Assembly: GCA_050012475.1 (NCBI GenBank)
Contig: JBEKHC010000010.1
Location: 1-64,000 of the forward strand
DNA length: 64,000 nt
Source: Candidatus Velthaea sp.
Lineage (GTDB): Bacteria; Vulcanimicrobiota; Vulcanimicrobiia; Vulcanimicrobiales; Vulcanimicrobiaceae
Direction: 5' to 3'
Part shown: in pieces, positions 33,907 through 55,428 of the stretch
Layout of the letters: each line of letters opens with the position of its first letter
Numbering within the stretch: position 1 is the stretch's first letter
Translations under genes and position numbers: made by a program
Notes under the pieces: generated by a model
Told to the model about the DNA's origin: nothing
Seen by the model: only the letters and a program-made list of their open reading frames with translations
Database searches by the model: none

Positions 33907-33985
33907 GGTTCGCTATTCGCCGGCCGGAGCGGGTTTCCAGGCTCGCAGGGAGTCGCGTGCCGGTGGCCAAACGTCGGTGCCCGGT

Positions 33986-34426
33986 ATGGCAGCCTTTCGT
34001 TTTTCGCTGCAGCCAGTGCTCGAGCGGCGCACCCGGATCGAAACCGCGCAACGCGAGGTGTTGCTCGCCGCCGAGCGAGCCGCGGCGGGCGCGAGAGCCG
34101 AGCTGGTTGCGCTCGACCTGCGCCTGCACGGGTTGAGCCGCGCTTTCAGCGGCTCGTTCGCGGCGCTCGGCGCAAGCGACGTCCGCGGGTTGCTGCTCGA
34201 AATCGAGGTCGTCAAAACGTCCCTTGCCAAGCAGCGGCACGTCACCGACGCCGCCCGCGCGGCGGCGAGCAGGGCGCGCGATGCGTTCGGGGCCGCACGC
34301 GCCGAGCGCACGACGCTCGAAGCCGTACGGGACAGATGCTACGCGACGTTCCTAGCCGAGCAAGAGCTGCGCGAGGCGGCAGAATACGACGAGTCCAACG
34401 CCCGGCGCCGCATAATTTCGGCATAA
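33986..34426 (+). CDS. fliJ: FliJ-like export chaperone/stalk
   Basis: FRFSLQPVLE.R N-terminus, coiled coil, E....DE C-terminus. Confidence 0.8.
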   Translation: MAAFRFSLQPVLERRTRIETAQREVLLAAERAAAGARAELVALDLRLHGLSRAFSGSFAALGASDVRGLLLEIEVVKTSLAKQRHVTDAARAAASRARDAFGAARAERTTLEAVRDRCYATFLAEQELREAAEYDESNARRRIISA

Positions 34427-34469: not shown

Positions 34470-34697
34470 ATGATGAATCTGACCGGCAACCTCGAATCGG
34501 CCGCGCTCGCCGGACGCGACGGCCTAAGCGCCGACGCAGCGGGCACCGCGCGCTCGATGACGGGGCCGTCTGCGCAACGCGATTTCGAGGCCCCGATGGC
34601 GCAGGCCGCGCGGCATGAGCTATTTACCGAAGCGTTGCTTTCGGCCGCCCACGCGCGGCTCGAAGAACTCAAGACCGCGGCCATGAACGGCCGATGA
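34470..34697 (+). CDS. Very short FlgB-like proximal rod protein
   Basis: C-terminal DFE..MA..A...L...AL......L..LKTA resembles FlgB; directly upstream of flgC. Confidence 0.6.
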   Translation: MMNLTGNLESAALAGRDGLSADAAGTARSMTGPSAQRDFEAPMAQAARHELFTEALLSAAHARLEELKTAAMNGR

Positions 34698-35104
34698 CCG
34701 ACTTTGCCATCCTCGGCGCCGCGTCGAGCGGGATGCAAGCGCAACGCGCGGCGATGGATATTGCCGCGCGCAATGTCGCGCTGGCACAAACCGGCGACGC
34801 CCGGCATCCGGCGCATGGACTCGTGCCCGATTTCGCGACCGTTCTTTCCGCTTCCAGCGCGCCCGAAGGCCCGGAGGACGCCGACGTCACGGCTCTCGAG
34901 GCGCAACTTTCCGACTCCGGCGACGACGCGAACGCCGGCGCAGTGGTTGCAATCAGCGGAGCCCACGTCGGCTCCGCGCCGCTCGATTCAATTACGGAGA
35001 TGATCAACGTCTTGGATTCACAACGCGCGTACGAAGCCAACGCGTCGATCTTCGACATCGGTAAACGCTTGTCGGAACGCACGATCGACATGGGGCGGCT
35101 GTGA
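34694..35104 (+). CDS. flgC: Basal-body rod protein FlgC-like
   Basis: ASSGM.AQR..MDIAARNVA; EMINV..SQRAYEAN. Confidence 0.85.
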   Translation: MTDFAILGAASSGMQAQRAAMDIAARNVALAQTGDARHPAHGLVPDFATVLSASSAPEGPEDADVTALEAQLSDSGDDANAGAVVAISGAHVGSAPLDSITEMINVLDSQRAYEANASIFDIGKRLSERTIDMGRL

Positions 35105-35409
35105 CCATCACGCCGCTGGACGCTATCGCAGAAAGCCCCGCTGCGACGGCGCTGGAGCCTGACATCTCGCGCGCATCCGGCAACGATGCGGCGACCTTCG
35201 GATTTGGAAGTTTGGTCTCTGCGCTGCGGGCCGGCACGCAATCGCTGCAGCGTGCGGAGGGTGCCGAAAACGCCTTCATCGGCGGAACCGGCGGACTGCA
35301 AGAGCTGGTCTTCGAGCGCGCCAAGGCCGACATCGTCGTCTCGATCGCGACGGCGGCTTCCTCGCGCGTGACCCAATCGATCAACACCGTCACCCAAATG
35401 CAACTATAG
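35101..35409 (+). CDS. fliE: FliE-like protein
   Basis: G...LQELV....KAD........SRV.Q....V.QMQL. Confidence 0.82.
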   Translation: MTITPLDAIAESPAATALEPDISRASGNDAATFGFGSLVSALRAGTQSLQRAEGAENAFIGGTGGLQELVFERAKADIVVSIATAASSRVTQSINTVTQMQL

Positions 35410-35479: not shown

Positions 35480-36994
35480 GTGCTCAACGGAACCGTGCCA
35501 CGCCGCTGGCAAGATCTTTCGCGCTCCGCGCAGATCGGGTCGCTGGCGCTCGTCGCGATCGTGCTGATCGGACTGGCGGCCTTCTTCTTCACCCGCGATA
35601 CGCAAACGGGACTCTTCGCGCGTCCGCTGCTGCCCGAGCAGCTCGCCGACGTCGAGACCCGACTGGCGGCCTGGAATGTGCCGTTCTCCGCGACGAGCGA
35701 CAACGTTCGCGTTCTGAGCGCTCAGAAAAACGAAACGCTCTTGCGCCTGTCGCTCGCGGGCGTGCCGCGCCTGCACATCGCGGATTCGAGTGAAACGCTG
35801 GCCAAAGTCGGCGCGCTGACCCCGCAATCGGTCCTCGAAGCGCAGACGCGCGACGGACTTGCCGGCGACCTTGCGCTGGGCTTGCGCGACATCACCGGCA
35901 TTTCCGACGCGCGCGTCATCATCGCGCCCGCAACGCCGGGCTACTTCGCCGACGAAACGGCGCATGAAGCCAGCGCCAGCGTTCAACTCGTGCGCGCGCC
36001 GAGCGCCCAGCTGTCGCCCGAAACCATCGGCGGGATCAAGGCGTTCGTGGCCGCCGGCGTGCCGGGGCTGGACCCGGCGCACGTCGCGGTCGTCGACGAC
36101 CGCGGGGTCGCGCTGAGCGGCACCGCGTGGACTGGTGAAGGCGAAGCGCAGCAATTGCAGGCGTCCATTCAGTCGGCGCTCGATCAGGCGCTGGGGAATG
36201 GCCGGGCGATCGTCCGCGCCCACGTCGACGTCGATCCAACCACAAGCACGCAACACGAAACGAAGCGCACGCCGGTGACGGCCAAACCGATCGCCGGGCA
36301 AACGACTGACGAACACTACACGAGCGACAAGAAACGCTACTCGAAAATTCAATCGTCGACCGACCGCGGCAGCGACGTCGTGGTCACCGATAAGAGCAGT
36401 GCCGCCGGGCGTCCGCAGCGCGTCTCGATCGCGGTGTTTCTCGATCGGCCGCTGGCTTCGGAGATCCCGCTCATTCGCTCGCTGGTGGAAAGCGCCGGCG
36501 GATTGAATTATGCGCGCGGCGACAGCCTCAGCGTGCAGCCCATCGCGCTCGCGACTGCCCCGCAAACGGCGCCGATTCGCACGGTCCCGCCGGCCCAAGC
36601 CGTGCTCGCGACGTTCGTGCCGCTCCTGCCGCCGACGATCTGGATCCTCGCGCTCGGCGGGCTGCTGGTCGTGTTCGCGCGCCCGCTCAAGCGGCTGCTC
36701 GCCGATTTGGGCCCGGGCGTTCCCGCTGCCGCACCGACGCTCGCTGCCATGTCCGTGCCGGGGCCGGCAAGCGCAGCAACGCTCCCCCCTGTCTCGCCCG
36801 ACGCGATCTTCCGCGCGCTGGCCGACGAGCCGCCGCACACCGCGGCAACCGTGATCGCCGGATTGTCGACACCGGATGCGGCCGCCGTGCTCGACTTGTA
36901 TCCGGCCGACGCGCGGCGCGAAATCATCAGCCGGCTGGCGCGCCCGCGGACGCCGTTGGCCAACGACGTGTCGGGCGCCGTCGGCCATGGCTGA
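35480..36994 (+). CDS. fliF: MS-ring protein FliF with C-terminal FliG middle-domain-like extension
   Basis: TM, ARVII, ASASVQL, VAAGVPGL....VAVVD.RG, RVSIAVFLD, RGDSLSV, second TM, then LADEPPHTAATVIAGL...AAAVL..YP...RREII.RLA. Confidence 0.88.
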   Translation: MLNGTVPRRWQDLSRSAQIGSLALVAIVLIGLAAFFFTRDTQTGLFARPLLPEQLADVETRLAAWNVPFSATSDNVRVLSAQKNETLLRLSLAGVPRLHIADSSETLAKVGALTPQSVLEAQTRDGLAGDLALGLRDITGISDARVIIAPATPGYFADETAHEASASVQLVRAPSAQLSPETIGGIKAFVAAGVPGLDPAHVAVVDDRGVALSGTAWTGEGEAQQLQASIQSALDQALGNGRAIVRAHVDVDPTTSTQHETKRTPVTAKPIAGQTTDEHYTSDKKRYSKIQSSTDRGSDVVVTDKSSAAGRPQRVSIAVFLDRPLASEIPLIRSLVESAGGLNYARGDSLSVQPIALATAPQTAPIRTVPPAQAVLATFVPLLPPTIWILALGGLLVVFARPLKRLLADLGPGVPAAAPTLAAMSVPGPASAATLPPVSPDAIFRALADEPPHTAATVIAGLSTPDAAAVLDLYPADARREIISRLARPRTPLANDVSGAVGHG

Positions 36995-37490
36995 AGCTTT
37001 TCGCAGCTTTGCCGCACTGCTGCTCGGCCGCGACGAGGCCAACGCCGAGCCGCCGGGCCCGCCCGAATCCGAACCGGCCGTCATTACCGAACCATGCCGC
37101 GAAACCGACCCGCGGGTAGCCGATCTGCTGGCTGGGTTCACCGTCGAACTGAACCGGTTGACGGCGCGCGCCGCCGAACTGTTGGAGGAGCAGGCCGAAG
37201 CCGCACTCGCCGATCTCGCACGACGCGTGTTGGGACGGGAATTCGCTTCCTCGCCGGCCGAGATCGCAGCGCTGCTGGCCGAAACGCTCGCGGAGTTCGG
37301 CGTCACGCGGCCGCTCGCCGTACGCGTTTCGAGCGCCGACGCGCAGCACGTCGTTTCGCCCTGGCGCGTACAGATCGACCCGAGCCTTTCCGCCGGTGAT
37401 TTCGCGGTCGACGTCGAGGACGGCAGCTACGATCTCAACGTCCAGACCCGGCTGGATGCGCTGCTCGCGGCGCACCGGATCGCGCTGTGA
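36987..37490 (+). CDS. fliH: FliH/SctL-like ATPase stator
   Basis: LARRVLGRE, VRVS..D, DPSL..GD..V, RL; lies between fliF and the ATPase. Confidence 0.75.
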   Translation: MAEAFRSFAALLLGRDEANAEPPGPPESEPAVITEPCRETDPRVADLLAGFTVELNRLTARAAELLEEQAEAALADLARRVLGREFASSPAEIAALLAETLAEFGVTRPLAVRVSSADAQHVVSPWRVQIDPSLSAGDFAVDVEDGSYDLNVQTRLDALLAAHRIAL

Positions 37491-38761
37491 GCTTTGCTGC
37501 CCGGCGCGGCCGGGTTCTCGCCGCGCTGGGCGAGAGCGTGATCGCCCAGCTGCCCGGGGCGCGTGTCGGCGAAGCGGTCACGATCCGGGTCGGCGCGGCG
37601 CCGCGCGTTCCCGCGACCGTAACGCGCGTCGATGCCGCACGCGTTGAACTGCGGCCGCACACGTCGGTCGCCGGCGTCGGCGTGGGCGACGAAGTGGTGA
37701 CCGACCCGCTGGCCACGACTTTGCCGCTCGGGATGCGGCTGCTCGGGCGCGCGATCGATTCGGCCGGCTGCGCTCTCGACGCCAAAGGCAGCGTGCGCGG
37801 GCGCCGGAGCGCCGTCATCGATCCGCCGATCGATGCCGGTCAACGCGGTCCGGTCGAGCGGCCGTTTTGGACCGGCGTCAAAGCCATCGACGGGCTGATG
37901 ACGATCGGCCGCGGCGCGCGTGTCGGCATTTTCGGCGGCCCGGCGACCGGAAAATCGCTGCTCGTCGAAGCGCTGGTGCGCGGCGCCGGCGCCGACGCCG
38001 TGGTCGTCGGGCTGATCGGCGAGCGCGGCGCAGAAGCGGCGGCCTGGATGCAGCGCATCTCGCCGCACGCCACGATCGTGTGTTCGCCCAGCGATCGTTC
38101 CCCCAGCGAGCGCGTGCGCGCGGCGCACGTCGCGCTCGCGCAAGCATCGCAATTGCGCCGGCGCGGACTCAACGTGCTCGTCGTGCTCGACAGCCTGGCG
38201 CGCTTCGCGCTGGCCGCGCGTGAGATTGCGCTGCGCAACGGTGAAGCCGTCGGCCGCGGCGGCTATCCGCCCAGCGTCTTCGCCGAGATGACGCGGCTGC
38301 TGGAACGCGGCGGAAACGTGGGCGGCGGCAGCATCACGCTCGTGGCGACCGTGCTGTCCGACGGGCCGGACGACCGCGAACCCTTGAGCGACGGGGCTCG
38401 CGCAGCCCTCGACGGACACATCGTGCTGTCGGCCAAACTCGCGCGTCGCGGGCTCTTTCCCGCCATCGACGTGGCCGCCAGCGCGAGCCGCACGATGGAC
38501 GCCGCGGTAAGCGCCGGGCATCGGCGCAGCGCGCGGATCGTGCGGCGAGCAATCGCGGCGCTCGACGCCACCCGTGAACTGCGCGACCTCGGTTTCAGCC
38601 ATACCGACCGTCATCTCGAACGCGCCGTCGCGCTGCAAGAACGCATCGAAGCCTTCATCCACGACGGTCGGCGCACATCCGGCTCCGCCGAAATGCTGGC
38701 CGAGCTGCGCGCGCTCGCCGAACAACTGGATCTCGACGGACTCGAAGCGGTGTCTTTTTGA
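37487..38761 (+). CDS. fliI: Type III export ATPase FliI/SctN
   Basis: TGVKAIDG..TIGRG.RVGIFG, GKS, LIGERG, DSLARFA.A.REI, GYPPSVF, LDGHIVLS. Confidence 0.94.
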   Translation: MSFAARRGRVLAALGESVIAQLPGARVGEAVTIRVGAAPRVPATVTRVDAARVELRPHTSVAGVGVGDEVVTDPLATTLPLGMRLLGRAIDSAGCALDAKGSVRGRRSAVIDPPIDAGQRGPVERPFWTGVKAIDGLMTIGRGARVGIFGGPATGKSLLVEALVRGAGADAVVVGLIGERGAEAAAWMQRISPHATIVCSPSDRSPSERVRAAHVALAQASQLRRRGLNVLVVLDSLARFALAAREIALRNGEAVGRGGYPPSVFAEMTRLLERGGNVGGGSITLVATVLSDGPDDREPLSDGARAALDGHIVLSAKLARRGLFPAIDVAASASRTMDAAVSAGHRRSARIVRRAIAALDATRELRDLGFSHTDRHLERAVALQERIEAFIHDGRRTSGSAEMLAELRALAEQLDLDGLEAVSF

Positions 38762-39369
38762 TAGCGCTCGCCGATGTCGCCGCCGTCGAACGCCGCGTCG
38801 CTCAACTCGCCGACGGCGAACGTCCGCCCATCGATCGCACGTCCGGCGGCGCCGCGTTTTCAGCACTGTTGGCTGCTGGGGGCGCCGCGCCCGACGGCAC
38901 GCCGCCCGCGCCGCCGCCGCGTTCGATCCCCTTCGCCGAACTCGAGCGAACGATCGCGCAGGCGTCGGCGGCGAACGGGGTCGATCCCGCGCTGGTCAAA
39001 GCCGTCATTGCGAACGAAAGCGGCTTCGACGCTGGCGCAACGTCGAGCGCCGGCGCGCAAGGACTCATGCAGCTCATGCCCGGCACGGCGGCGAGTGAGG
39101 GCGTCGCCGACGCGTACGATCCGCGCCAGAATGTCGCCGGCGGAACGCACTATCTCCGTGGTTTGCTCGAACGTTTCCACGGCAATGTCGCGCTCGCGCT
39201 CGCGGGCTACAACGCTGGGCCGGGGGCGGTCGAGCGCGGCGCCATCGGAACCGAAACGCAAAACTACGTGCATTCGGTGCTCGCTTCGTACGCGGCGCTC
39301 CGTGCCTCCGCAAAGCCGGACGCCGACGCCGTTTCGCCGGACGCTGTTGCCGCAACGCCGATTGGATAG
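38758..39369 (+). CDS. Lytic transglycosylase (SLT domain)
   Basis: VIANESGF, GAQGLMQLMP.TA, AGYNAG, ETQNYV. Confidence 0.93.
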   Translation: MIALADVAAVERRVAQLADGERPPIDRTSGGAAFSALLAAGGAAPDGTPPAPPPRSIPFAELERTIAQASAANGVDPALVKAVIANESGFDAGATSSAGAQGLMQLMPGTAASEGVADAYDPRQNVAGGTHYLRGLLERFHGNVALALAGYNAGPGAVERGAIGTETQNYVHSVLASYAALRASAKPDADAVSPDAVAATPIG

Positions 39370-40532: not shown

Positions 40533-41186
40533 CTAAGCGATCAAGATGGAGCTCTGCGTGCAATCGTCGGGCGGATACTCCGGCGCGTCGCCGTGCTCGC
40601 CCCTTTCGTCCGCTGGACGCCGGCACGGTTGTTCGTGCCGGCGCTTGCGGCGATCGAGGGTGTCCGGAGCCGGCGGTGTGAGCGCGTTGGCCACCAAGAT
40701 CGGCGGCGGCGTGTTGTCGGCATCCGGCGTAGCGGGAGGCAGCAAGCGCAGCGCCGCATCGCTGCCGTAGCGCTCGATGGAGGCGGCTAGACGACCGGCG
40801 GTCGCCGCAGCGAGTTCCGTCTTGCTGGGGGACGCGGCGCCGCGCGTCCGCCCACCGGCCGCAAGCTGCGCCAGTGTCAGCTGGGCGATGAACGCTTCCC
40901 GCACTTGGGTCGGAAGCGCCGCGATGACGGTCGCGAACGCCTCGCCATACCGTCGGAGCAACACTCCGACCGCGTTCGGCCCGTACTCCGGCATCGTTTG
41001 CAGCAACGCCGCGACGTGCGCGTAGGGAACGCCGAACGTCGTCGCCGGATCGCATGCGATGCTATCGGCGGCCGGCATCGGACCGGTAAAAGCCCCCAGC
41101 GCTGAATCGACTGGGGTTTCCGCTGCCGCAGCAACGCGAACCGCCGGCACCGGCGAAACGCCTGGTAAGGCATCGAATTCCCTCAT
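40533..41186 (-). CDS. Hypothetical protein inside the export cluster
   Basis: ATG at 41186 after GGAGGAGG; 217 aa. Confidence 0.65.
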   Translation of the reverse strand: MREFDALPGVSPVPAVRVAAAAETPVDSALGAFTGPMPAADSIACDPATTFGVPYAHVAALLQTMPEYGPNAVGVLLRRYGEAFATVIAALPTQVREAFIAQLTLAQLAAGGRTRGAASPSKTELAAATAGRLAASIERYGSDAALRLLPPATPDADNTPPPILVANALTPPAPDTLDRRKRRHEQPCRRPADERGEHGDAPEYPPDDCTQSSILIA

Positions 41187-41321
41187 CCGGCCTCCTCCGC
41201 TCCCCCGCAGCGCCCTTTCACGCGCACGGGGTGCTTTTTCAAGGGCCGGCGGCCTCGGACCGACGATTATTTTGCGCGCAGAGAACACATCGGACACATA
41301 AGCCGCCGCTACGCTTGCGAC

Positions 41322-41594
41322 GTGGATGTTTTTGACGGCCTCCTGCGCGAGGCGCTCGTCGTGTGTGCGGTCATCTGCTTGCCGGTCTTAGGGGCGGCGG
41401 CGCTCATCGGGACGATCATTGCGATCGTCCAGGCGGCGACGCAGATTCAGGAACAGACGTTGACGCTGCTGCCCAAGCTCATCGTCGTCGCGTTCGTGGT
41501 CGCCGTGTTCGGCCGGTTCGGTTTGGGATTGTGCGCGAATCTCTTCACCGACGCGCTCGGCCGCATCCCGGCGTTGATTTCGTCGCTGGGGTGA
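41322..41594 (+). CDS. fliQ: Export gate FliQ/SctS
   Basis: QAATQIQEQTLT.LPK. Confidence 0.95.
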   Translation: MDVFDGLLREALVVCAVICLPVLGAAALIGTIIAIVQAATQIQEQTLTLLPKLIVVAFVVAVFGRFGLGLCANLFTDALGRIPALISSLG

Positions 41595-42310
41595 CGCAGC
41601 TGTATGCGCTCGTCTTCGCCCGCTGCGCCGGCTTCGTTTTCCGCGCGCCGGGCTTTTCGCACCCGGCGGTGCCGCCGATGGTGCGTGCGGGTTTGGCGCT
41701 GGTGCTTGCCGTCGGATTGAGCCCCGCGTTGCGCGGTCCCGGCGTTCTTCCCACTGGTTCGTTCGTCTTCGCATTGGCACTTGAGGTCGCGCTCGGCGCG
41801 ATGGTCGGCATGGCGGCATCGATTCTTTACGACGGCATCTCAGCGGGAGCACGCGCGCTCGATGACTACGTCGGCATCCAGGATAGTCTGCGCAACGCGA
41901 CGACCTCGGCCGGCGGCGAGGCGTTCAGCCGGCTGTGGACGATCACGTTCATCGCAGCCTTCTTCGTCCTGGGCGGATACCGTTTGCTGATTGTCGCCTT
42001 TGCGCGCGGGTTCGAGCTGCTGCCGCCGGGCTCGCTGCTGCGTCCGGGGCATCTGCTCGACTTCGCTCTCTCGCTGCCGACGCTGTCGCTGCGTGCCGCG
42101 CTCATCGTCGCGGGGCCCGGCATTTTGCTCGCGCTGCTCGCCCAGCTCGCGCTGGGCAGCGTCGCGCGCGTCATCCCGCGCTTTGCGAATTTCACCTTGA
42201 CGTTTCCGATCGTCTTCGGCGTCGTGCTCCTCGCGACACTGGCCACGCTGCCGTTTGCTGCGGACCTCGCCGGCCGTCCGTGGCTGCACCTGCCGATGCT
42301 GAACCCTTAA
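41591..42310 (+). CDS. fliR: Export gate FliR/SctT
   Basis: VFAR..G....AP.FS, E...G, LG..ARVIP, FP; GTGA overlap with fliQ. Confidence 0.92.
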   Translation: MTQLYALVFARCAGFVFRAPGFSHPAVPPMVRAGLALVLAVGLSPALRGPGVLPTGSFVFALALEVALGAMVGMAASILYDGISAGARALDDYVGIQDSLRNATTSAGGEAFSRLWTITFIAAFFVLGGYRLLIVAFARGFELLPPGSLLRPGHLLDFALSLPTLSLRAALIVAGPGILLALLAQLALGSVARVIPRFANFTLTFPIVFGVVLLATLATLPFAADLAGRPWLHLPMLNP

Positions 42311-42313: not shown

Positions 42314-43318
42314 ATGGCCGACGACAAACCGTTCGAGCCGACGCCCAACTGGATCGCGCGGGCTAAGCGCGAAGGCAACGTCGCACGCTCGCAGGAGCTG
42401 GGCGCGATCTGCGGGTTTTTGCTTGGCGCCGTCGCGCTCGCGGCGCTCGTGCCGGCGCTGGGCGGCGTCGCTGCCCGTTGGATGGTGCAGACGGCGGCGG
42501 ACGGCGGTCTGCACACCGATGGACTGCTGCCGTTCGCCGGACTGGCGCTGCTGCCGCTCGTCGCCGTTGCAATCGGCGGCACGACGACGGCCCTGCTGCA
42601 AGAACGGCTGTTCTTCGTGGCACCGCGCTTCAAAGCCGACCGGCTCAATCCCAAAGAAGGCCTCAAGCGCATGTTCTCGCGCGAAGCGGCCGTCGCGGCG
42701 GCACGCGCGGTGCTCGCCTTCGGACTGGCGACGAGCGCCATCGTGCCGACCGCGAACGAAGTCTTCGCCCGCGGCGTCGGCGCGGCCGATCTTCCGTTCA
42801 TCGCGGCTTTGGTGCGCTCGGCCGGCGCGCGCATCGTGCTCAGCGTGCTCGTCGTCGGCGCGCTCTTTGCCATCTTCGACGTCCTCATCGTGCGCCGGCG
42901 CTGGCGCCGCAAACTGCGCATGAACGCACACGAGCTCAAACGCGACACCAAAGAAAGTGAAGGCGATCCGCTGCTGCGCCGGCACCGCCGGGGCATGCAC
43001 CGCTCGCTGAGCTCCGGAGCCATGGCCGGCGTTCAGCGCGCGGCCTTCGTGCTCACCAATCCGACGCACATCGCGATCGCTCTGGAATACCGGCCGCCCG
43101 AGGTCCCCGTGCCGCGCATCCTCGTTCGCGCCAGCGACCAAAACGCGCTCCGCGTGCGCGACTTGGCGGCCGGTTATGCAATACCGGTGATCGAGAACGT
43201 GGCGCTCGCGCGCGAACTCTACGCGCTGGGCCGGCCCGGCGACGAGATTCCGGTCCAAACGTACGTCGCAGTGGCCGAGGTCATAAACGCACTCTTGCAA
43301 ACGGGGACCCTGACGTGA
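42314..43318 (+). CDS. flhB: Export switch FlhB/SctU
   Basis: PT....AKREG.V.RS.E, RLNP..G.KRMFS, KESEGDP, NPTH autocleavage motif. Confidence 0.95.
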   Translation: MADDKPFEPTPNWIARAKREGNVARSQELGAICGFLLGAVALAALVPALGGVAARWMVQTAADGGLHTDGLLPFAGLALLPLVAVAIGGTTTALLQERLFFVAPRFKADRLNPKEGLKRMFSREAAVAAARAVLAFGLATSAIVPTANEVFARGVGAADLPFIAALVRSAGARIVLSVLVVGALFAIFDVLIVRRRWRRKLRMNAHELKRDTKESEGDPLLRRHRRGMHRSLSSGAMAGVQRAAFVLTNPTHIAIALEYRPPEVPVPRILVRASDQNALRVRDLAAGYAIPVIENVALARELYALGRPGDEIPVQTYVAVAEVINALLQTGTLT

Positions 43319-45529: not shown

Positions 45530-45799
45530 ATGGCATTTCTCGGTGCACTCTTTGCCGGTATCGGCGGCAGCTTGTTCTCCGGCGGCCCGCTGTCCGGGAT
45601 GCTCAACGGCGCGGAGGCGGCCTCCGAGGCAAGTTACGAGGAAAACCAGGCCGAACTGCTGGCCTCGAACACGCGGCTCAATACCATGGCCGTAAAAATG
45701 TCGGAAACCACGAATACCGAGGAGCTCTCCGTCGCCGCCGACGAGGCGCACAACCACGTTGTACGTTCCTACATCGAAGCGGTCAAACAAGTACAATAG
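45530..45799 (+). CDS. Small helical protein, candidate T3SS pilin or secreted subunit (89 aa)
   Basis: Strong RBS AAAGGAGCAATC; Gly-rich N-terminus, amphipathic C-terminus; directly after flhA. Confidence 0.75.
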   Translation: MAFLGALFAGIGGSLFSGGPLSGMLNGAEAASEASYEENQAELLASNTRLNTMAVKMSETTNTEELSVAADEAHNHVVRSYIEAVKQVQ

Positions 45800-47502: not shown

Positions 47503-47775
47503 ATGTCATCCATTGCACCCTCTCTCAGCAGCACAGCCGGATCCGCCGTTTCGAGCACGGCGAACAGCAGCAGCGGCGACAGCAGTTCGCAGGCGTTGCT
47601 GCAAGAAGAACAGGCGCAGTTCGAGGCAAACTTCGCGCTGCAAACGCACCAGGCCATGATCGACAACCAAAATGCGACCAACACCGCGATTGCCCAGTCG
47701 CACGCACAGACCGCATCCGCGTCGACCGCAGGCGCACGGGAAGTCGGCGACTCGAACGCCCATATCGTTGCATAG
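47503..47775 (+). CDS. Small Ser/Ala/Gln-rich protein, candidate Hrp-pilin-like subunit (90 aa)
   Basis: RBS AAGGAGCAATC identical to that of 45530; Ser-rich disordered N-terminus then a Gln/Asn/Ala helix. Confidence 0.75.
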   Translation: MSSIAPSLSSTAGSAVSSTANSSSGDSSSQALLQEEQAQFEANFALQTHQAMIDNQNATNTAIAQSHAQTASASTAGAREVGDSNAHIVA

Positions 47776-48019: not shown

Positions 48020-48337
48020 TCAACCGAAACGATACGCGCCGCTGTCGTCGATTTGAACCGTGCCGTGCTCGATTTCCAAGCGGTGGACGCGATGATCCCA
48101 GTAGCCGAGCAGCCGGATCGCATACGGCTTCATTCGTGCGAGCAGCGCTTTGGTCGCGCTCGAGACGACGAAGCGGTCGCGCACCCATTTCGGATGATCT
48201 CGCGGCAAGACGATCTCGCCGATCGCACCGGCATCGGTCAAGCCGCCCATGACCGTCGGCGATTCGGCCGCCTGCTGCGCGGGCGGTGCAGCGCTGGTTC
48301 CCTCGCGCCGTCGCACGATTCCAGCTCGTTTACTCAT
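48020..48337 (-). CDS. Hypothetical protein coupled to the sigma factor gene
   Basis: ATGA overlap with the sigma gene stop. Confidence 0.55.
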   Translation of the reverse strand: MSKRAGIVRRREGTSAAPPAQQAAESPTVMGGLTDAGAIGEIVLPRDHPKWVRDRFVVSSATKALLARMKPYAIRLLGYWDHRVHRLEIEHGTVQIDDSGAYRFG

Positions 48338-49002
48338 GCGCTGATCATCTCTTCGCGAACGATTTCGAGCGCGCGATCGCGCAACTGCGCGATGCGCTGC
48401 TTGGTCACGGACAACTCGCGCGCTACGGCTTTGAGTCGATAGCCGGAAAAAAAGTAGAGTTCGACGACCTGCCGATGGCGCACGGGCAATTTCTGGAGCG
48501 CCGCCCGTAAAATCGCGCGTGCCTCGTGTTCGCAGTACAGCCGAGCCGGATCCGTTTCCCAGTTCGCAGCGACCAGCGCGTCGACCGGGATCGCATCATC
48601 GAGTGAAACGCACGAACGGTGATGGGCGGCAATCCGAGCAGAGCGCAGCTTGGGATGCCGGCGCTCCATCTCGAGCATCGACGGCAGGTGACCAGCCGTC
48701 AGCGCGATGGCGTAGCGGTCCCGTTCCGCCTGACGTAAGATACGCCGGGTGAATTCGGTCAGCCGGTCCATGCGCCGCAACCCGTTGAGCATTGCGCCGA
48801 GAATGCGGGCGCGCGCGTAGCGATCGAGCGACGCTCCGCGAGCCGGATCGTAGGAATCGACCGCGCGGACGAGCCCCAGGCAGCCTTCGCCGACCAGATC
48901 GTCGAGGTCCACGCGCCCGGCTCGGCGTGCTACCGTGCGCGCGATGGTGCGGACTACCGGATACAATCGCACGATCGTCGCATCCCGCTCGGCCGCGGTC
49001 AT
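48334..49002 (-). CDS. FliA/WhiG-like (sigma-28 group) sigma factor
   Basis: DDLV.EG.LGL..AVDSYDP.RG, YA..RI.GAML..LR..D, SLD, region 4 HTH. Confidence 0.85.
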   Translation of the reverse strand: MTAAERDATIVRLYPVVRTIARTVARRAGRVDLDDLVGEGCLGLVRAVDSYDPARGASLDRYARARILGAMLNGLRRMDRLTEFTRRILRQAERDRYAIALTAGHLPSMLEMERRHPKLRSARIAAHHRSCVSLDDAIPVDALVAANWETDPARLYCEHEARAILRAALQKLPVRHRQVVELYFFSGYRLKAVARELSVTKQRIAQLRDRALEIVREEMISA

Positions 49003-49304
49003 TTGAGCCGCTCGGCGTCCTGGGCGGCGGCGCCGCCGGCGCCGGAACGTTCGGTCAGCGCTCGCAACTCATCGTAGAAGGCGTCGTGTTGGCCGCGCGC
49101 GATGGCGGCGCCCAGCGCATCGGTGAACACGTCGCCCAGCGGCCCCAATGCTTGCGCCAAGGGCGCGAGCACGCTCGACCACAACAGGCCCTCGAACTTC
49201 GCCGCGGTCTCGGCGTTCGGCGCCGATCCCGCCGCAGTTCTCGGCGGATCGACCGCCAACGGGACGCCGGCGGGACTAGCTGCGCTGGATGTTGTTGGCA
49301 ACAC
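48999..49304 (-). CDS. Short FlgJ rod-binding-like protein
   Basis: TAAKFEGLL...L motif; follows flgG; no muramidase domain. Confidence 0.5.
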   Translation of the reverse strand: MLPTTSSAASPAGVPLAVDPPRTAAGSAPNAETAAKFEGLLWSSVLAPLAQALGPLGDVFTDALGAAIARGQHDAFYDELRALTERSGAGGAAAQDAERLK

Positions 49305-50004
49305 GCATCATCTCGTCGGCGGCAGTAACGCCTTTGGCGTTGGCTTCGTAGGCGCGCTGCGCAGAGAGAATTTCCATCATCGCTTCGATCACCGAGACGT
49401 TCGAGCGTTCGAGCATCCCGAACGCGACCTTCGGACCGCCGTCGCGACCGGCATCCACATAGCGCACGGGTCCCGAATCGTTGGTCGCCGCGAACACGGT
49501 CGAACCGGCGACGCGCAGACGTTCGGGCGCGGCAAACGTGGCTAGGCGGATGCGGCCGGCAAACTGACGCTTCCCGGCCAGCGTGTCGACGTAGGTCATG
49601 CCGTCCGGTTCGGCCGTTATCGCCAGTGCATCATCGGGAACCTTGATGCCGACGAGCGAGAAACCGTCCGCGTTGCGCAACACGCCGTCGGGCGTGCGGT
49701 GAAATTCACCGTCGCGGCTGTAGACGAACGTCCCATCGGGGCGCTTGAGGGTAAAGAAACCGACGCCGTCGATTGCCGCGTCGAACGGACCACCCGATTT
49801 CATGAGCTTGCCCTGCTCGAAAAGCAGCTGTTTGCCGGTGAATGCGGTGCCCAGACCCGAGGTGCCGTCGGTGAGTGCAGCAAACCTGGCGGCACTGCCT
49901 TTGAATCCGGGCACTTCGGCATTGGCAAGATTGTCCGAAATCGTCTCGAGATTGTTTTGCTGCGCTGCCATCCCCGTTGCAGCCGCGAACATCGCCCGGT
50001 TCAT
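49276..50004 (-). CDS. flgG: Distal rod protein FlgG-like
   Basis: AATGMAAQQ..LE.ISDNLAN...PGFK, D.AIDG.GFF, YSRDG.F, LERSNV, QRAYEAN. Confidence 0.88.
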   Translation of the reverse strand: MNRAMFAAATGMAAQQNNLETISDNLANAEVPGFKGSAARFAALTDGTSGLGTAFTGKQLLFEQGKLMKSGGPFDAAIDGVGFFTLKRPDGTFVYSRDGEFHRTPDGVLRNADGFSLVGIKVPDDALAITAEPDGMTYVDTLAGKRQFAGRIRLATFAAPERLRVAGSTVFAATNDSGPVRYVDAGRDGGPKVAFGMLERSNVSVIEAMMEILSAQRAYEANAKGVTAADEMMRVANNIQRS

Positions 50005-50615
50005 TGAATCTTTCCCATCCCGTTAGCGGCTTTCGAGCGCGTTTCGTCGATCGCGACGAGCGTTTTTTGCGCGGTCTCGAACGCGCGCTGCGCATCGATG
50101 ACGCCGATCATCTCGCCGATCGAGTTGACGTTCGAGCTCTCGAGGAAGCCGCTCCGCACGGTGGTGCCGCGCGGCAGCGCCAACTGCGCGACGGCCCGGC
50201 CCGACGCACGCCACGTTCCGTCGGCTTCGATCGCCGGCGCGCCGGGCGGCAAACGAACGAAACCGTTCTTGCCCAGCAGCGTGCGGCCGTGCGCGTCGAC
50301 GAGATAGCCGTCGCAGTCAGAGGTGAACGCTCCCGCCCGCGTCGCAACGCGCAACTGCGGATTGCGGTCGGGCGCGACGAAAAACGAACCGCCGCCGATG
50401 AGGGCGAGATCCAGCGTGCGTCCGGTGAAGCGCGCGGGGCCTTTCTCGGGCGATGCGACCGCAACGGTCGTGAGGCCGCGTCGTGACGCAACGGTCCGGG
50501 CCAGGTGTTTGTGAAAGCCGTCGGTCGACGCGTTGGCGAGATTGTCGGTGGCGATTTCGAGCTTCGCCTTGGCGGAGAGCATTGCGCTCGCCATCCATTG
50601 AATGCCGGTCAACAT
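50001..50615 (-). CDS. flgF: Rod protein FlgF-like
   Basis: NLANAST.GF, TGR.LDLAL.G, TRAGAF, GFLESSNVN, QRAFE. Confidence 0.82.
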   Translation of the reverse strand: MLTGIQWMASAMLSAKAKLEIATDNLANASTDGFHKHLARTVASRRGLTTVAVASPEKGPARFTGRTLDLALIGGGSFFVAPDRNPQLRVATRAGAFTSDCDGYLVDAHGRTLLGKNGFVRLPPGAPAIEADGTWRASGRAVAQLALPRGTTVRSGFLESSNVNSIGEMIGVIDAQRAFETAQKTLVAIDETRSKAANGMGKIQ

Positions 50616-50674: not shown

Positions 50675-51328
50675 TCAGCGAAAGCTGCTCGCGATGCCGC
50701 CGCAGACCAGCGTCCAGCCGTCGACCATAACGAACAGCAGGAGCTTACACGGCAGCGAGATCACGGGTGGACTGAGCATGAACATGCCGAGGCCCATGAG
50801 GATCGACGCCACCGCCAGATCGATGGCCACGAAGGGCAAATACAGCGCGAAACCGATCGCGAACGCGCTGCGCAATTCGCCGACCACGAACGCCGGCATG
50901 ACGACCGAGACTGGCTGCAGCGACGCTTGTGCTTCGGGCTCGTGCGCCACGCGCTCGAAGAGATCCAGATCTTTTTTGCGCGTCTGCCGGAGCATGAACG
51001 CGCGCAGCGGTTCGATGCCGCGCTCGATGAGCTGCGCTTGCGAGATGCGGCCTTGACTGTAGGGCACGATGGAATCGTGCGAAATGCGCTGCAGCGTCGG
51101 CGTCATGACGACGACGGTCAGCACCAACGAAACGCCGATCAAAACGATGTTGGGCGGCAGCGCTTGGGCGCCGATCGCGGAGCGCACGAGCCCGAGCACG
51201 ACCACGATGCGCACGAACGCCGTCGTCATCACGAGCAGCAGCGGCGCGATGGCCAGGATCGTCAGACTGCCCAGCACGTCGAGCGGCAGGGCCGCGTGAC
51301 TGCCGGGAAGGGCGAAGCCGGGTATCAT
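50675..51328 (-). CDS. fliP: Export gate FliP/SctR
   Basis: MTTAFVRI, PPN.VL, PAF...EL..AF.IGF..YLPF..ID, PP..ISLP.KLLLFV.VDGW. Confidence 0.96.
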   Translation of the reverse strand: MIPGFALPGSHAALPLDVLGSLTILAIAPLLLVMTTAFVRIVVVLGLVRSAIGAQALPPNIVLIGVSLVLTVVVMTPTLQRISHDSIVPYSQGRISQAQLIERGIEPLRAFMLRQTRKKDLDLFERVAHEPEAQASLQPVSVVMPAFVVGELRSAFAIGFALYLPFVAIDLAVASILMGLGMFMLSPPVISLPCKLLLFVMVDGWTLVCGGIASSFR

Positions 51329-51334: not shown

Positions 51335-51592
51335 TCAGCGCTGCGCGACGAGTTCGGTGATCCGAACGCCGTAATTGTCGCCCACCGCCACGATGTCGCC
51401 GCGGGCAACGATTTTGTCGTTGACGAGCAAATCGATCGGTCCGCCGGCGCAGCGATTGAGGTCCAGGATCGATCCGGTGCCCAGTTGCAAGACCTCTTCG
51501 ATCGTCAGCTTGCACGTGCCGAGTTCAGCGGTCACGTGCAGCGGCACGTGCATGAGCAGCTCGAAGTTGCCGTACTCGTCGGGCGGGCTCAT
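51335..51592 (-). CDS. fliN: C-ring protein FliN
   Basis: VPL.V.AELG, L..GSI..L, P.D..VN...ARG..V, YGVRIT. Confidence 0.93.
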   Translation of the reverse strand: MSPPDEYGNFELLMHVPLHVTAELGTCKLTIEEVLQLGTGSILDLNRCAGGPIDLLVNDKIVARGDIVAVGDNYGVRITELVAQR

Positions 51593-52401
51593 GTCGTCGC
51601 CTCCCGGCGGCCCGCAGCCGCGATGACAACCGCGTTGCTTTGGGCGCGGATGCCGCAGTCGCCGCTGGCGACGACGCAATCGCCGATCTTGACCATCGTC
51701 GGCGCACCGATCTTCGTATCGAGCCGCACCGTCTGTCCCACCCGCCAGGCCGCGATTTCGCGCGCGTTGACGACCGCCTCGGCGAACTGCGCGCGAACGT
51801 CGAGCGCGATGCCGGACAACATCGAACGCTCCAGCTTGCCGCCGAAGCGCGGACCCGGATCTTGCGAGAGCCCGATGCCGATCACGGCATCGAACGGCAG
51901 GCCGATCCGCAACTCGAAATACGTGACGCAGCGTGCGTCTTCACGCTCGGGTTCGATCCGTGCGAGGCCGTTCGCGTCGCCGCAGAACGGTGCGCAGAGC
52001 GCCGCGACCTCGGCGGCGATGCGTTCGAGCGCACGTTCTTCGAGCGCAGAAAGCGGCACGTTTTCGCCGCCGCACTCTTCGCCGAACACGCCCTGCGCGA
52101 TGCGCCGCGCGTCGCGCCGGCGGAACACGACGTAGAGGTCGCAGATACTGCCACGCGCCCGGTACAGGCTTCCGCGCTCGAAAAGGACGCGCTGCGTGCC
52201 GTCTTTGACGAGCACGGGCGCAAAGACGTCGAGCGTCAACTCGCGGGCCAGCAGGTTCGAGAGCCGGGCTCGCGCGTGATTGGCCGCTGCACACACGGCG
52301 GAAATCGGCAAGTCCGTGACCGGCTCGAAATAGGTCTCACGAACGAGTTTCGCGCCCGACGCGCCGCTGGGTTGGGCCCGAAAGCGCAGCATCGTGATCA
52401 C
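51589..52401 (-). CDS. fliM: FliM-like C-ring protein
   Basis: LSALE motif and C-terminal SpoA-like domain; upstream of fliN; no LSQ.EID CheY-binding N-terminus. Confidence 0.7.
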   Translation of the reverse strand: MITMLRFRAQPSGASGAKLVRETYFEPVTDLPISAVCAAANHARARLSNLLARELTLDVFAPVLVKDGTQRVLFERGSLYRARGSICDLYVVFRRRDARRIAQGVFGEECGGENVPLSALEERALERIAAEVAALCAPFCGDANGLARIEPEREDARCVTYFELRIGLPFDAVIGIGLSQDPGPRFGGKLERSMLSGIALDVRAQFAEAVVNAREIAAWRVGQTVRLDTKIGAPTMVKIGDCVVASGDCGIRAQSNAVVIAAAGRREATT

Positions 52402-53126
52402 TTGATGAGATCCACGGCGATCTTGGCCGCGCGGGCATCGGCCTGTGTGCCCGCGCTCATAGCATCGAGCGCGAGGAACGCCTCGCGAAGCTGAACGAGC
52501 CCGGCCTCGAAGTCGACCGACCCGAGGTCGCGCGATTGCGTCGCGAGCGCCCCGAACGATCCTTCCGTCGCCCGCCCGACGGTCGCGACGATACCGGGCG
52601 CGGGCACCGCCTGCGTCGCGCCTACGCGCTGCAGTTCGGTTCCGGCCGGGAAGCGCGCTAAAGCCACCCGCCCGACGGCGACGCGTTCTTTGGACGGTTT
52701 GTTGGTCTTGGGATCGATCACGGTGCGCGTGTAGGCGACGGTGCCGTCGGCCTCGACGTGCGCTTCGCTCACCCGTCCCAGCGCGGCATCGACGGGATCG
52801 ACATGCAGCGGCTGCGGCGACGCGCCCCGCGCCGCGGCGGGAAAGCCCAGCACCGCCGAACCGTCGGCGAAGCGAACGGTCCCGTCGACGACGGCGAAAC
52901 TTCCGTCGCGCGAATAAAACGGCTTCGCGGCTTTATCCAGGCCCATGAAGTAGGCGTGTTCGGGAGCCGCAACGCTCATCGGATCGAGCGCCGGTTTCGG
53001 GGGCGCCGGCGTCGCGCTGCGCACATCGTGATACGTGGCTTCGTACCCAGGCACATACGCGTTGAGCATCTCTTGGGTGCGCGCCGCGAGTTCGCTGAGC
53101 GCTTGCGCCGGACCGGGATTGATCAT
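52398..53126 (-). CDS. Divergent short hook/rod-family protein (FlgE/FlgG-like)
   Basis: LNAYVPGY, YSRDGSF, VALARF....L...G, SVDF...LV.L. Confidence 0.65.
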   Translation of the reverse strand: MINPGPAQALSELAARTQEMLNAYVPGYEATYHDVRSATPAPPKPALDPMSVAAPEHAYFMGLDKAAKPFYSRDGSFAVVDGTVRFADGSAVLGFPAAARGASPQPLHVDPVDAALGRVSEAHVEADGTVAYTRTVIDPKTNKPSKERVAVGRVALARFPAGTELQRVGATQAVPAPGIVATVGRATEGSFGALATQSRDLGSVDFEAGLVQLREAFLALDAMSAGTQADARAAKIAVDLIK

Positions 53127-53746
53127 GAATGCCCTTTCTGGATAGCATCGATCTCGATACGCACGCCGCGGCGCAGCAACGCGGCACGGGCTGCATCGAG
53201 TGCGGCCGCGACGCGCGGCGAGTTCCGGCCGTCATAGATGGCGATCAGACGCAGCACGGTACCGTGTTGCTGCACGAGCAGGTCGACGCCTGTGCCGTCG
53301 CCGAGTCTCGCCCGGCAATGGATTCGCTTGCGTACGATCGCGCCGGCGGCCGGCCGGAGCGTTGCCGTGACGCGCTGCTTGCGAGCCGGCAGCGCCGGGG
53401 AAAGCGCCGGCGCTGAGCTGACGAGCCGCATGCGCAGCGCCCGTTGCGCGAACGCGTTTGGGCTCGCGCCGGTTTGTGCTCCTGCACGCGCCGGCGCAGC
53501 GCGCAACGCCGCGGCAGCGCCGGCGACGAGCTCGGGGCGATTGCGTCCATTCGCGGCCGGTGGCTGCGCCGTAGCGCGCGGATGGAAGAGCGCGCGATAC
53601 CACGCTTCAGAAAGCGCGCGGCGATCCGTGTACACCGAAGGCGATGCAAACGAAGCATTCGGCGGCTGCGGTACGATCTCGTTCACGGACGCTGTTCCGG
53701 CATGAACGAAGCGTAGCGCCGGAATTTGGGACGGCCGTGACCGCAT
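53123..53746 (-). CDS. Possible FliK/SctP-like length-control protein
   Basis: Ala/Pro-rich N-terminal region plus a compact beta-beta-alpha-beta C-terminus (GVDLLVQQHGTVLRLIA...AL..RG..IEI); ATGA-coupled to the hook-like gene; start uncertain. Confidence 0.45.
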   Translation of the reverse strand: MRSRPSQIPALRFVHAGTASVNEIVPQPPNASFASPSVYTDRRALSEAWYRALFHPRATAQPPAANGRNRPELVAGAAAALRAAPARAGAQTGASPNAFAQRALRMRLVSSAPALSPALPARKQRVTATLRPAAGAIVRKRIHCRARLGDGTGVDLLVQQHGTVLRLIAIYDGRNSPRVAAALDAARAALLRRGVRIEIDAIQKGHS

Positions 53747-53810: not shown

Positions 53811-54491
53811 TTACGCGGCCACAAACTTATAGCCGTACCCATAGATCGTCGTGAGGCAGGGCGGTAACTGCAGCTGCTCTTCGACTTTCGTCCGAACGCG
53901 CCGAATGTGTCCGTCGACGGTGCGGTCGTCGCCGTCGTAATCGAAACCCCACACCTTTTGCAGCAAGGTTTTGCGCGACAGCACGACGCCGGGATTGCTG
54001 GCCAGCGCCCATAGCAGCGAGAACTCCTTGGGGCGTAAACCGGCGTCGACACCGTCGACGCGCGCGACGCGCGCGCCTTCGTCGAGTTCGAGCCGTCCAT
54101 AGCGCAGCACGCGCGCGGCCGGCTCGGCGTCGGCCGTCTTGCGCCGCAAGATCGCGCGCACACGGCACACGACTTCGCGCGGAAAGAACGGTTTGGCGAC
54201 GAAATCGTCTGCCCCCAGTTCGAACGTCACGACCCGGTCGATCTCGTCGGTTCGGCCGCTGAGCACGAGGACGGGAATGGACCGGTTCTCGCCGCGCAAC
54301 GTCCGCATGACGCCCATTCCGTCGATCACCGGTAAGCCCAGATCGAGGATCACGAGTTCGGCGCCTTCGCGAACGTGACGCAGCGCCGCGCAGCCGTCGG
54401 CGGCTTCCACGGCATCAAAGCCCTCACTCTTGAGGTGAAAGACCATCAGGCTTCGAACGGCCTGATCGTCGTCGGCTACTACGATACGCAT
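53811..54491 (-). CDS. OmpR/PhoB-family response regulator
   Basis: DDD, LDLGLP..DG, GADDFV.KPF, RTVD.HIRR.R.K, GYGYKF. Confidence 0.95.
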   Translation of the reverse strand: MRIVVADDDQAVRSLMVFHLKSEGFDAVEAADGCAALRHVREGAELVILDLGLPVIDGMGVMRTLRGENRSIPVLVLSGRTDEIDRVVTFELGADDFVAKPFFPREVVCRVRAILRRKTADAEPAARVLRYGRLELDEGARVARVDGVDAGLRPKEFSLLWALASNPGVVLSRKTLLQKVWGFDYDGDDRTVDGHIRRVRTKVEEQLQLPPCLTTIYGYGYKFVAA

Positions 54492-54978: not shown

Positions 54979-55428
54979 ATGAGCGATATTCCTACCGTGC
55001 TGCGCATCGTCTCGGCATTCGCCGTCGTTGTGCTGCTGTTGTACGCCTTTGCCGTCGTCGCGCGCCAGCGCCGGGGAACGAAACTGCACGCGCGCAGCGA
55101 TCGGCTCATCACGGTGATCGAGACGACGCCCCTGACGCAGAACGCGTCGCTGCACGTCGTGAAAGTGGGCGAGCGCTACCAGGTGATCGCGCTGACGTCG
55201 GCTACCGTTTCGCAGCTAGGTGAAATCGAGCCGGCAACGGTCGGACGCATCGCCGGCTCGCGCGATGCACCGTCGTTCTTTGCCGGAGCCGGCCGGCGGC
55301 CGAGCGCCCCTGCCGGGCAGCCGCCGCGAAGATCGCGGACCGGAGACGCTCAACCGGGCTGCGACGGCAATGCTCCAGACGGCGCGCACGGTACGGATCC
55401 ATTTGATCGATCGGCCGCGCCTCAGTGA
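54979..55428 (+). CDS. fliO: FliO-like protein; 3' end runs into duplicated foreign sequence
   Basis: N-terminal TM, I.VIETT.L.....LHVVKVG.RY..I; the C-terminal tail overlaps the repeat of 59460-59850. Confidence 0.75.
   Translation: MSDIPTVLRIVSAFAVVVLLLYAFAVVARQRRGTKLHARSDRLITVIETTPLTQNASLHVVKVGERYQVIALTSATVSQLGEIEPATVGRIAGSRDAPSFFAGAGRRPSAPAGQPPRRSRTGDAQPGCDGNAPDGAHGTDPFDRSAAPQ

Follow-up and report, generated by a model that had tools for sequence, protein, structure and literature searches.

A FliF-FliG middle-domain fusion as the likely mark of a motorless, flagellum-derived export system in Vulcanimicrobiota

In a stretch of 64,000 nucleotides (the window) that opens contig JBEKHC010000010.1 of a Candidatus Velthaea sp. 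genome (GCA_050012475.1; the contig is C10 and the host genome G000 in our collection), an open reading frame (ORF) on the forward strand (35480-36994) encodes a FliF protein of 504 residues that ends in a piece of FliG. The domain content of this protein, the gene set around it, its spread among relatives and the presence of a separate intact flagellum in the same genome are established here by sequence comparison. We consider it probable that the fused gene belongs to a second, old gene set derived from a flagellum, and that this set encodes a type III export machine that does not rotate and whose FliG-derived tail would dock the FliM/FliN platform. An initial annotation of the window had taken the fusion as a sign of lost rotation. 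This holds for the fused machine, which lacks the helix that contacts the stators, but not for the cell, which also encodes a flagellum with the torque residues of FliG, MotA/MotB, rings and flagellins. In our best reading of the sequences, the fusion marks a phylum-wide motorless sister of the flagellum and not a cell that has lost rotation.

From its N-terminus, the protein comprises a first transmembrane (TM) segment, the domains RBM1-3, a second TM segment borne by a long helix of the model (residues 371-409; 36590-36706, forward strand), a linker and a tail assigned to the middle (ARM-M) domain of FliG (FliG-M; residues 440-486; 36797-36937, forward strand), an architecture that emerges from Pfam, a predicted model and fold matches. 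The ORF contains the peptide quoted in the initial annotation, which had already recognized a FliG middle-domain-like continuation with an EPPH motif (36827-36838). Pfam detects YscJ_FliF at residues 50-213, YscJ_FliF_C at 234-355 and FliG_M at 440-489, the latter with 32.4 bits against a cut-off of 25 (E 1.1e-7) over positions 1-50 of the 76 in the profile; neither FliG_N nor FliG_C is among the Pfam matches listed for the protein. When the tail alone was compared with PDB sequences, the eight best matches were FliG middle domains (best E 0.002; MgtE matched weakly, E 0.18), and EPPH aligned on the EHPQ motif and R485 on the motif's Arg, the last member of the EHPQR set. The EHPQR/GXXG interface and the torque helix of FliG are described in PMC7355467. 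Real FliG proteins were matched by a profile of the tail at about residues 118-183, in the middle domain (E 2e-6); the N-domain gave a faint match (E 0.4) and the C-domain none. When the alignments of the fusions and of FliG were compared by hhalign, a single block resulted (probability 71, E 3.6e-5), again within the middle domain. In the AlphaFold2 model, four tail helices (440-486) have predicted local distance difference test (pLDDT) values of 94-97; they superimpose on residues 96-171 of Salmonella FliG (Z 8.0-8.6, root-mean-square deviation (rmsd) 2.8-3.7, 61-65 residues, the alignment beginning at about 96-103) and on residues 115-168 of T. maritima FliG (Z 7.7, rmsd 1.9, 54 residues), Z values that are modest for helical folds and are weighed only jointly with the sequence evidence. 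Foldseek with the whole FliF model listed ring domains only, and the tail match came from a second structural aligner.

It is hardly credible that the tail is a different armadillo-like repeat, be it the N-domain of MgtE, FliG-N or an unsplit FliF-C/FliG-N unit. Such a confusion is conceivable in principle, as a single fold recurs in the domains of FliG (PMC7355467) and MgtE_N does match the tail weakly (16.1 bits, below the cut-off of 25.9; E 0.017); the significant sequence, profile and structure alignments, however, all fall on FliG-M with the motif in register. MgtE, FliG-N and FliG-C were rejected as identities for this reason, and alignments and predicted model jointly confirm the tail as a single FliG middle domain. 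Among 37 aligned fusions, E450 is retained in all 37, P452 in 34, H453 in 28 and R485 in 27, the H and Q positions of the EHPQR motif being altered in the fusions. Counted from the motif, the tail measures 54-56 residues in the families f1 and f2 and 43-48 in f3. The ORF stops about 18 residues past the ARM domain, so that the gene has no FliG-C torque helix (Arg281/Asp289), and the start of fliH (36987-37490) overlaps its stop codon, in agreement with the earlier statement that fliH directly follows.

An assembly error or a recent deletion can be ruled out. A contig from another study (run X2, 36477-36885) spans the TM2 helix and the tail, the junction between tail and fliH is spanned by contigs of three studies (X2, X4, X5), and the fusion is widespread and alignable in relatives. 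In a search of 1.84 billion representatives, 45 of the best 150 rows carry the tail, all of them top-scoring fused-type or fragment rows, and it is absent from the ordinary FliF rows among these 150, which do not extend to chlamydial or other distant fusions. Three long rows among them turned out to be frameshift read-throughs and not new fusions.

The torque domain, said in the initial annotation to be absent, is indeed missing from this locus, but the genome has it: the single FliG_C match in the host genome lies on contig C42 within a full FliG. Contigs C42, C93 and C163 together encode FliF, FliG, FliM, MotA, MotB, FlgE, FlgD, FlgH, FlgI, FlgK, FlgL, FlhA and three flagellins (gene names were read from the sequences; Pfam backs those of FliG, flagellin, MotA and FlgI). 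The torque residues of this FliG are intact, both P and L rings are present, and judged by these genes the host cell likely still swims. Because the genome retains this full separate set, the fusion belongs to another machine, and loss of motility at the level of the organism was rejected. A second fusion locus of the host genome is located on C15. Two strong MotA_N matches lie outside the flagellar cluster (G000:C20:24465-24734 and C31:49173-49439), and similar extra matches occur in the three other genomes of the host genus.

In a set of 61 genomes from this class of the Vulcanimicrobiota (Eremiobacterota), fused-type FliF was detected in 57 (E <= 1e-35) and missed in G014 (72% complete), G015, G022 and G032; conservation of the fusion in homologous loci is thus borne out. 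A short FliG_M match at the end of the gene is detected by Pfam in 32 of the 37 genomes of f1, all five of f2 and seven of the 19 of f3, and the diverged f3 tail still aligns in all ten f3 rows of the alignment. True flagella are far less common: across the 61 genomes, FliG_C is present in 23, flagellin above cut-off in 24 (the Flagellin_N profile also detects FlgL), FlgI in 23 and MotA_N in 17, in nearly the same genomes. All 17 genomes positive for MotA_N are also flagellin-positive, and FlgI tracks flagellin and occurs in none of the 19 f3 genomes. FliG_C was not found in 35 of the 57 carriers, and 34 carriers lack both FliG_C and flagellin, including all 19 f3 genomes and four single-contig genomes. 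These tallies include the unpublished genomes G022, G024, G031, G032, G048 and G059, on which the conclusions do not depend; the genomes of the class are kin and not independent, and absence means not found in the genomes searched. For V. alpinus, which has been cultured, neither flagella nor a flagellin gene is reported, yet fliN is listed for it in a row of Table S8 (PMC9758169).

These distributions bear on the idea that the fused ring still rotates by borrowing a canonical FliG together with stators (or spare MotA paralogues) encoded at other sites of the genome. The host does possess a full FliG, MotAB and the two further MotA_N matches. However, the 34 carriers without FliG_C and flagellin speak against such borrowing, as do the absence from fused FliF of the C-terminal helices that bind FliG-N and the lack of the stator-contact arginine in the FliGs of unfused sister systems (see below); the single-contig genomes without FliG_C (G007, G009, G018, G027) largely refute the idea, and we regard it as extremely unlikely.

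The core copy of the fused gene adjoins rplM-rpsI (rplM in 77 and rpsI in 78 of 101 loci, a set that includes short contigs and some repeats), and because these genes flank most loci, the core copy appears to have been inherited vertically at a fixed position. Its order is flgB flgC fliE fliF-G fliH fliI slt, followed in f1 and f2 by fliK-like flgE-like fliM fliN fliP fliQ fliR flhB flhA; the second half is found elsewhere in f3. A second module of flgF, flgG, a flgJ-like gene, a sigma factor gene and a small ORF is present in all five flagellin-less genomes checked. Flagellin, stator, P-ring, hook-junction and FliG-C genes were not found in the fused-system loci in our survey of their gene content. 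Among the nearest 80 loci, 69 carry genus names that we assign to Vulcanimicrobiota/Eremiobacterota, five are unnamed and six bear other names but share the gene order and are probably mislabelled. An aspartyl-protease-like gene (54/101 loci) and metF (55/101) lie on the same strand within the core export cluster (e.g., G000:C15:14948-16435 and 10694-11599), both names being read from the sequences and not from a family scan. Two full copies of fused FliF are also carried by another genome (locus L210, G123:C62), whose second FlhA is placed apart from the window type, so that duplication of the fused system occurred more than once.

In another view, the locus is what remains, in decay, of a flagellum that was lost or had become redundant, and the fusion is a functionless deletion scar. 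The proteins are shortened and fast-evolving (FlhA has a long branch and most fall below family cut-offs), fused-type FliF was not found in four of the 61 genomes, and a few copies are in two pieces. The latter may be long-read errors, though, and open frames, a constant tail length and a conserved motif in three families speak against a scar. As the system is, moreover, kept where the true flagellum is absent and duplicated in several genomes, we consider decay very unlikely.

Flagellum-like systems outside the class shed light on the origin of the fusion. Among 57 genomes of other classes, FliG_C is present in 53 and flagellin in 19. The loci L192 and L207-L209 show the same gene order with a separate FliG of 330 residues and a short FlgE-like gene. 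The column equivalent to Arg281, a residue named in PMC6445934 and mapped here by alignment to the host's own FliG, is occupied by Arg in 25 of 25 flagellar FliGs and in 0 of 13 FliGs from flagellin-negative genomes; the Arg297 column holds Arg or Lys in 19 of 25 versus 0 of 13, and the acidic residue of column 289 is retained in all FliGs compared (25 flagellar and 13 others). A MotA query gave weak partial matches only, in two of five genomes of other classes. In a phylogenetic tree of FlhA, 17 sequences of the fused system form one side of a branch (SH-like approximate likelihood ratio test (SH-aLRT) 100) and are sister to five unfused flagellin-less systems (100). They are separate from the flagellar FlhA that these genomes also encode, a union with which is rejected (approximately unbiased (AU) test, p 1.8e-10); a union with three SctV sequences is rejected weakly (AU p 0.029). 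The trees were calculated with 40 and then 28 rows, after two very long and ten near-redundant rows had been dropped, and the main grouping did not change. Since unfused sister systems already lack the stator-contact arginine, its loss likely preceded the fusion. An early duplicate of the basal body in the phylum may thus have lost the filament and the stator-contact arginines while keeping FliG whole, as in other classes today, and would have been cut down to the fusion in an ancestor common to this class; this order of events is one that we infer from quick single-gene trees with few outgroups, thin rooting and compositional bias.

Some further observations concern these genomes. In the unfused system of G097, a truncated FliG (N and M, without C) directly precedes the full FliG (L208:10767-11621). 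Solitary FliF paralogues with ordinary C-termini and no recognized flagellar neighbours occur in other classes (L191, L193-L195, L197-L199, L201, L203-L206). In G090, G133, G097, G065 and G074 (L217-L222), also of other classes, FlhA is matched by many proteins in its cytoplasmic C-terminal part alone; G090 has up to about a dozen such matches, and some lie in very long ORFs. The proteins possibly represent an expanded family of cargo-docking domains.

A candidate partner for the tail is encoded in the same island. The FliM-like protein (270 residues; 51589-52401, reverse strand) combines the middle fold of FliM with a SPOA domain: hhalign against FliM covers 219 columns (probability 93, E 2.9e-7), and with its model, matches were obtained to FliM from the C ring of Salmonella as well as to middle domains of FliM (E 2e-8 to 3e-5). 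A profile search of PDB sequences retrieved SPOA domains only; the middle domain emerged by hhalign and the model. The Gly loop of FliM is replaced by FGE, and the N-terminal peptide of flagellar FliM, the CheY-binding site, is missing. By alignment and model, the protein keeps the middle fold that matches a FliG-M partner, and docking of the tail on FliM is predicted.

On this basis, the machine that we favour could work as follows. FliF rings would enclose the FliPQR-FlhB-FlhA gate. With the tail attached covalently, the clasp between FliF-C and FliG-N would have become dispensable and is gone. The EPPH..R face is predicted to bind the middle domain of the FliM-like protein, which together with FliN would hold FliH-FliI-FliJ beneath the gate. 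Lacking FliG-C, the structure would be devoid of the torque helix and also of the ARM-M/ARM-C stacking from which a rotor ring is built; lacking the CheY peptide, it would not undergo chemotactic switching. Through a hole that the transglycosylase cuts, the gate would first export FliE and FlgB/C/F/G; a short FlgE-like tube, its length measured by the FliK-like protein, would come next, and substrates under the control of the FliA-like sigma factor last.

Several points weigh against this picture. The loci hold no dedicated outer-membrane part, FlgI is missing where the flagellum is missing, and secretins, present in all five genomes checked, are in every case unlinked to the loci. The hook cap FlgD was not recognized in the loci, to which the search for it was confined. 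With FGE in place of the FliM Gly loop and R485 lost in all ten f3 rows, the contact surface between FliG and FliM has drifted. Pfam detects the tail in only seven of 19 f3 genomes. No cargo is evident in the core loci, and the pilin-like ORFs discussed below have no Pfam or NCBIfam match. The MotA_N profile misses several flagellated genomes, which makes stator absence the weakest of the absences, and the FlhA trees are quick, built on one gene and reject the SctV link only weakly (AU p 0.029).

Part of these gaps would be accounted for if the structure did not rotate and did not secrete cargo either, the rod being limited to the periplasm and serving as a wall-anchored channel, sensor or developmental platform with its own sigma factor. 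The export-gate platform proposed for nanotubes (PMC6456723) would be a model for such a structure. The FliF-related sporulation channel would be another. The lack of a P-ring and of a linked secretin, the FliA/WhiG-like sigma factor of its own and the core loci without visible cargo genes are consistent with it, and so is a near-universal, mostly single-copy system in a fixed place among housekeeping genes, unlike patchy weapons. Yet the ATPase, FliH, FliJ, FlhB and the FliK-like and FlgE-like proteins are all retained, as befits the ordered export of an axial tube, and duplicate islands contain small secreted-looking ORFs. We therefore consider an envelope structure of this kind unlikely, and continue to favour an export machine.

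The window locus differs from the core copy in that all modules are united in one island (33977-55428), which also includes FliO and a response regulator; genes for the export gate, the ATPase complex, FliM/FliN and the rod are all present. On the forward strand, the island begins with FliJ (33977-34426, above the Pfam cut-off) and an apparently eroded FlgB-like protein of 75 residues (34470-34697) that has no Pfam match but whose family profile finds FlgB-position proteins of other classes (E 2e-6 to 6e-4). FlgC (34694-35104; Pfam Flg_bbr_C and position) and FliE (35101-35409; Pfam FliE E 8e-4, just under the cut-off) lead to the fused gene, which is followed by a short FliH (167 residues; 36987-37490, Pfam FliH), the export ATPase FliI (37487-38761, family matches) and a lytic transglycosylase (38758-39369, Pfam SLT) that is present in 73 of 101 loci. 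An Ala/Pro-rich ORF without family (40533-41297, reverse strand) diverges from fliQ; ORFs of similar composition occupy the same place in two related islands. The gate genes fliQ (41322-41594), fliR (41591-42310), flhB (42314-43318) and flhA (43315/43330-45360), identified by Pfam and NCBIfam, are on the forward strand. In the trees, window FlhA and the FlhA of G002 form a pair; related islands are those of G002, G003 and locus L115. The window FlhA scores 596 bits with the flagellar model and 464 with the SctV model, both below cut-off.

The second part of the island is mainly on the reverse strand. It starts with a small ORF without family (48020-48337), also found downstream of the sigma gene in relatives, and a FliA/WhiG-like sigma factor (48334-49002; best specific family TIGR02479, 117.8 bits, below the cut-off of 189.6), whose closest homolog adjoins flgF/flgG in five of five flagellin-less genomes checked. 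A putative rod-cap protein similar to FlgJ (48999-49304, start uncertain) has no match of its own, but its positional equivalent in G049 passes Pfam Rod-binding (27.8 versus 25.1 bits). FlgG-like (49276-50004) and FlgF-like (50001-50615) rod proteins, recognized by family scans, are followed by fliP (50675-51328) and fliN (51335-51592), both above TIGR cut-offs, by the fliM-like gene and by a short FlgE-like hook protein of 242 residues without outer domain (52398-53126; best PDB match of the profile FlgE, E 3e-11, in two segments). The next ORF (53123-53635, start approximate) may encode a FliK-like ruler, as suggested by a family profile (E 5e-20 on the ORF) and the position before the flgE-like gene; one of 16 members of this family matches Pfam Flg_hook (E 0.024). 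An OmpR-type response regulator (53811-54491), present in two related islands as well, and FliO on the forward strand (54979-55428, above the Pfam cut-off) complete the island.

Two small forward-strand ORFs of the island are candidate pilin-type substrates, and we treat them as leads only. The first (89 residues, 45530-45799) has a variable Gly-rich N-terminal half and a near-invariant helical C-terminal half in 22 relatives besides its own record, and is an HrpA cluster neighbour by language-model features (score 0.88). The second (90 residues, 47503-47775), Ser-rich and then Gln/Ala-helical, reaches a feature score of 0.91 with 177 shared features in a cluster with HrpA_pilin in 23% of its members. 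Neither these nor the other small island ORFs match a Pfam or NCBIfam family, and tblastn revealed no credible homolog among the loci compared. The 89-residue family occurs in two of 151 family genomes, in the second case again next to fliQ-fliR; because it is so rare, it is uninformative on the cargo of the core copy. In the G002 island (L188:1829-3795 and 9639-11939), several Gly/Ser/Gln-rich ORFs of 80-295 residues surround duplicate export genes; they are harpin- or pilin-like by composition, with no Pfam family above cut-off. We regard the window locus as a duplicate that arose later and is rarer, and small pilin-like proteins of its own are its likely export cargo. A bolder view is that of a third lineage of type III machines: a flagellar basal body would have been converted to non-rotating secretion a second time and independently, with living intermediates (a whole FliG without torque arginines in other classes, the fusion in this class), and duplicate islands such as the present one would build an Hrp-like pilus from their own small pilins. 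We would put this at somewhat less than an even chance.

Further genes and clusters lie elsewhere in the window. A LanM-type lanthipeptide synthetase (DUF4135 and LANC_like; 55633-58707, reverse strand) is encoded in DNA of lower GC content next to a BTAD/ATPase/TPR regulator (59506-62682, forward strand), the start of which recurs as a fragment at 55370-55480, flanking the synthetase. An aromatic degradation cluster (1336-16631, reverse strand) contains subunits of a multicomponent phenol hydroxylase, two catechol 2,3-dioxygenases, an aldehyde dehydrogenase and hydratases. At the end of the window, an ECF sigma factor (62708-63361) and a fragment of a type IV coupling protein (63460-63960, reverse strand) may mark a mobile element near the island.

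A comparison with known systems indicates that the architecture of the fusion is not new in kind, whereas the surrounding system appears to be undescribed. A FliF-FliG(M) fusion is already known from Chlamydiaceae (Bergeron 2016, PMC4768692). There, too, the cytosolic tail of FliF corresponds to the middle region of FliG, the setting is non-flagellated and a FliM/FliN-type partner has been proposed; the protein, however, has only about 330 residues with a cut periplasmic part and belongs to a few stray flagellar genes beside an injectisome (PMC4768692). In the window, by contrast, FliF has 504 residues with RBM1-3 whole, and gate, ATPase, FliM, FliN, rod, short hook and sigma factor are kept. 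Compared with the family PRK05934 (341 positions), which we take to be the chlamydial FliF-FliG protein, the window FliF gave no match at E 0.001, while FliG-M matches. As length, context and family scores differ, the two fusions would seem to have separate origins by convergence. A deletion fusion constructed in Salmonella, which lacks FliF's last 56 residues and the first 94 of FliG and still assembles a C ring (Sakai et al. 2019, PMC6445934), follows the same junction logic, with FliF-C and FliG-N gone; the laboratory fusion keeps FliG-C and rotates, whereas the natural one stops after FliG-M.

With flagellar basal bodies, including the one encoded on C42, C93 and C163 of the host, the fused system shares a homologous MS ring, gate, ATPase, FliM/FliN, rod and FliA-like sigma factor. 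It differs in the lack of flagellin, hook-junction, stator, P-ring and FliG-C, in a FliM-like protein without CheY peptide and in an FlgE of about 240 residues. Injectisomes and Hrp pilus systems resemble it as flagellum-derived export machines, in our case predicted to be non-rotating, with a linked lytic transglycosylase and possibly HrpA-like pilins in duplicate islands. Unlike them, it has FliF in place of SctJ/SctD (fused FliF has two TM segments and RBM3, and the SctJ model scores 28.5 of 162 bits), keeps rod and hook proteins, has no linked secretin, and its FlhA groups with the flagellar type and not with the three SctV sequences. Endosymbionts such as Buchnera possess reduced basal bodies without filament or motor that are thought to export proteins. 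Such a basal body is the cell's only, shrinking flagellum, whereas the bacteria with the fused system are free-living in soil and peat and have it as a second system, alongside a true flagellum in about four of ten genomes sampled. Rotor genes without filament have been reported for 11% of non-motile species, the phylum not being named in the accessible parts of that study (PMC12199754), and a secretion-system scan of one family of the phylum does not describe the fused system in its main text (PMC9259500). In the literature covered, which lay mostly outside subscription papers and the supplements of PMC9259500, we found no account of it.

How flagella were converted into injectisomes is a long-standing question, for which the usual model organisms offer no surviving intermediates. 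The phylum appears to keep a parallel series consisting of a flagellum, a basal body that has no filament and whose FliG is complete but dead for torque, and the FliF-FliG(M) fusion. The fused system would show which piece of FliG is needed for export once torque has been dropped and, for one lineage, would answer the question raised in PMC12199754 about the role of rotor proteins in the absence of a filament. It also serves as a warning that such genomes are liable to be mis-scored as motile or as decayed. Our reading can be tested in a cultured, non-flagellated member of the phylum.

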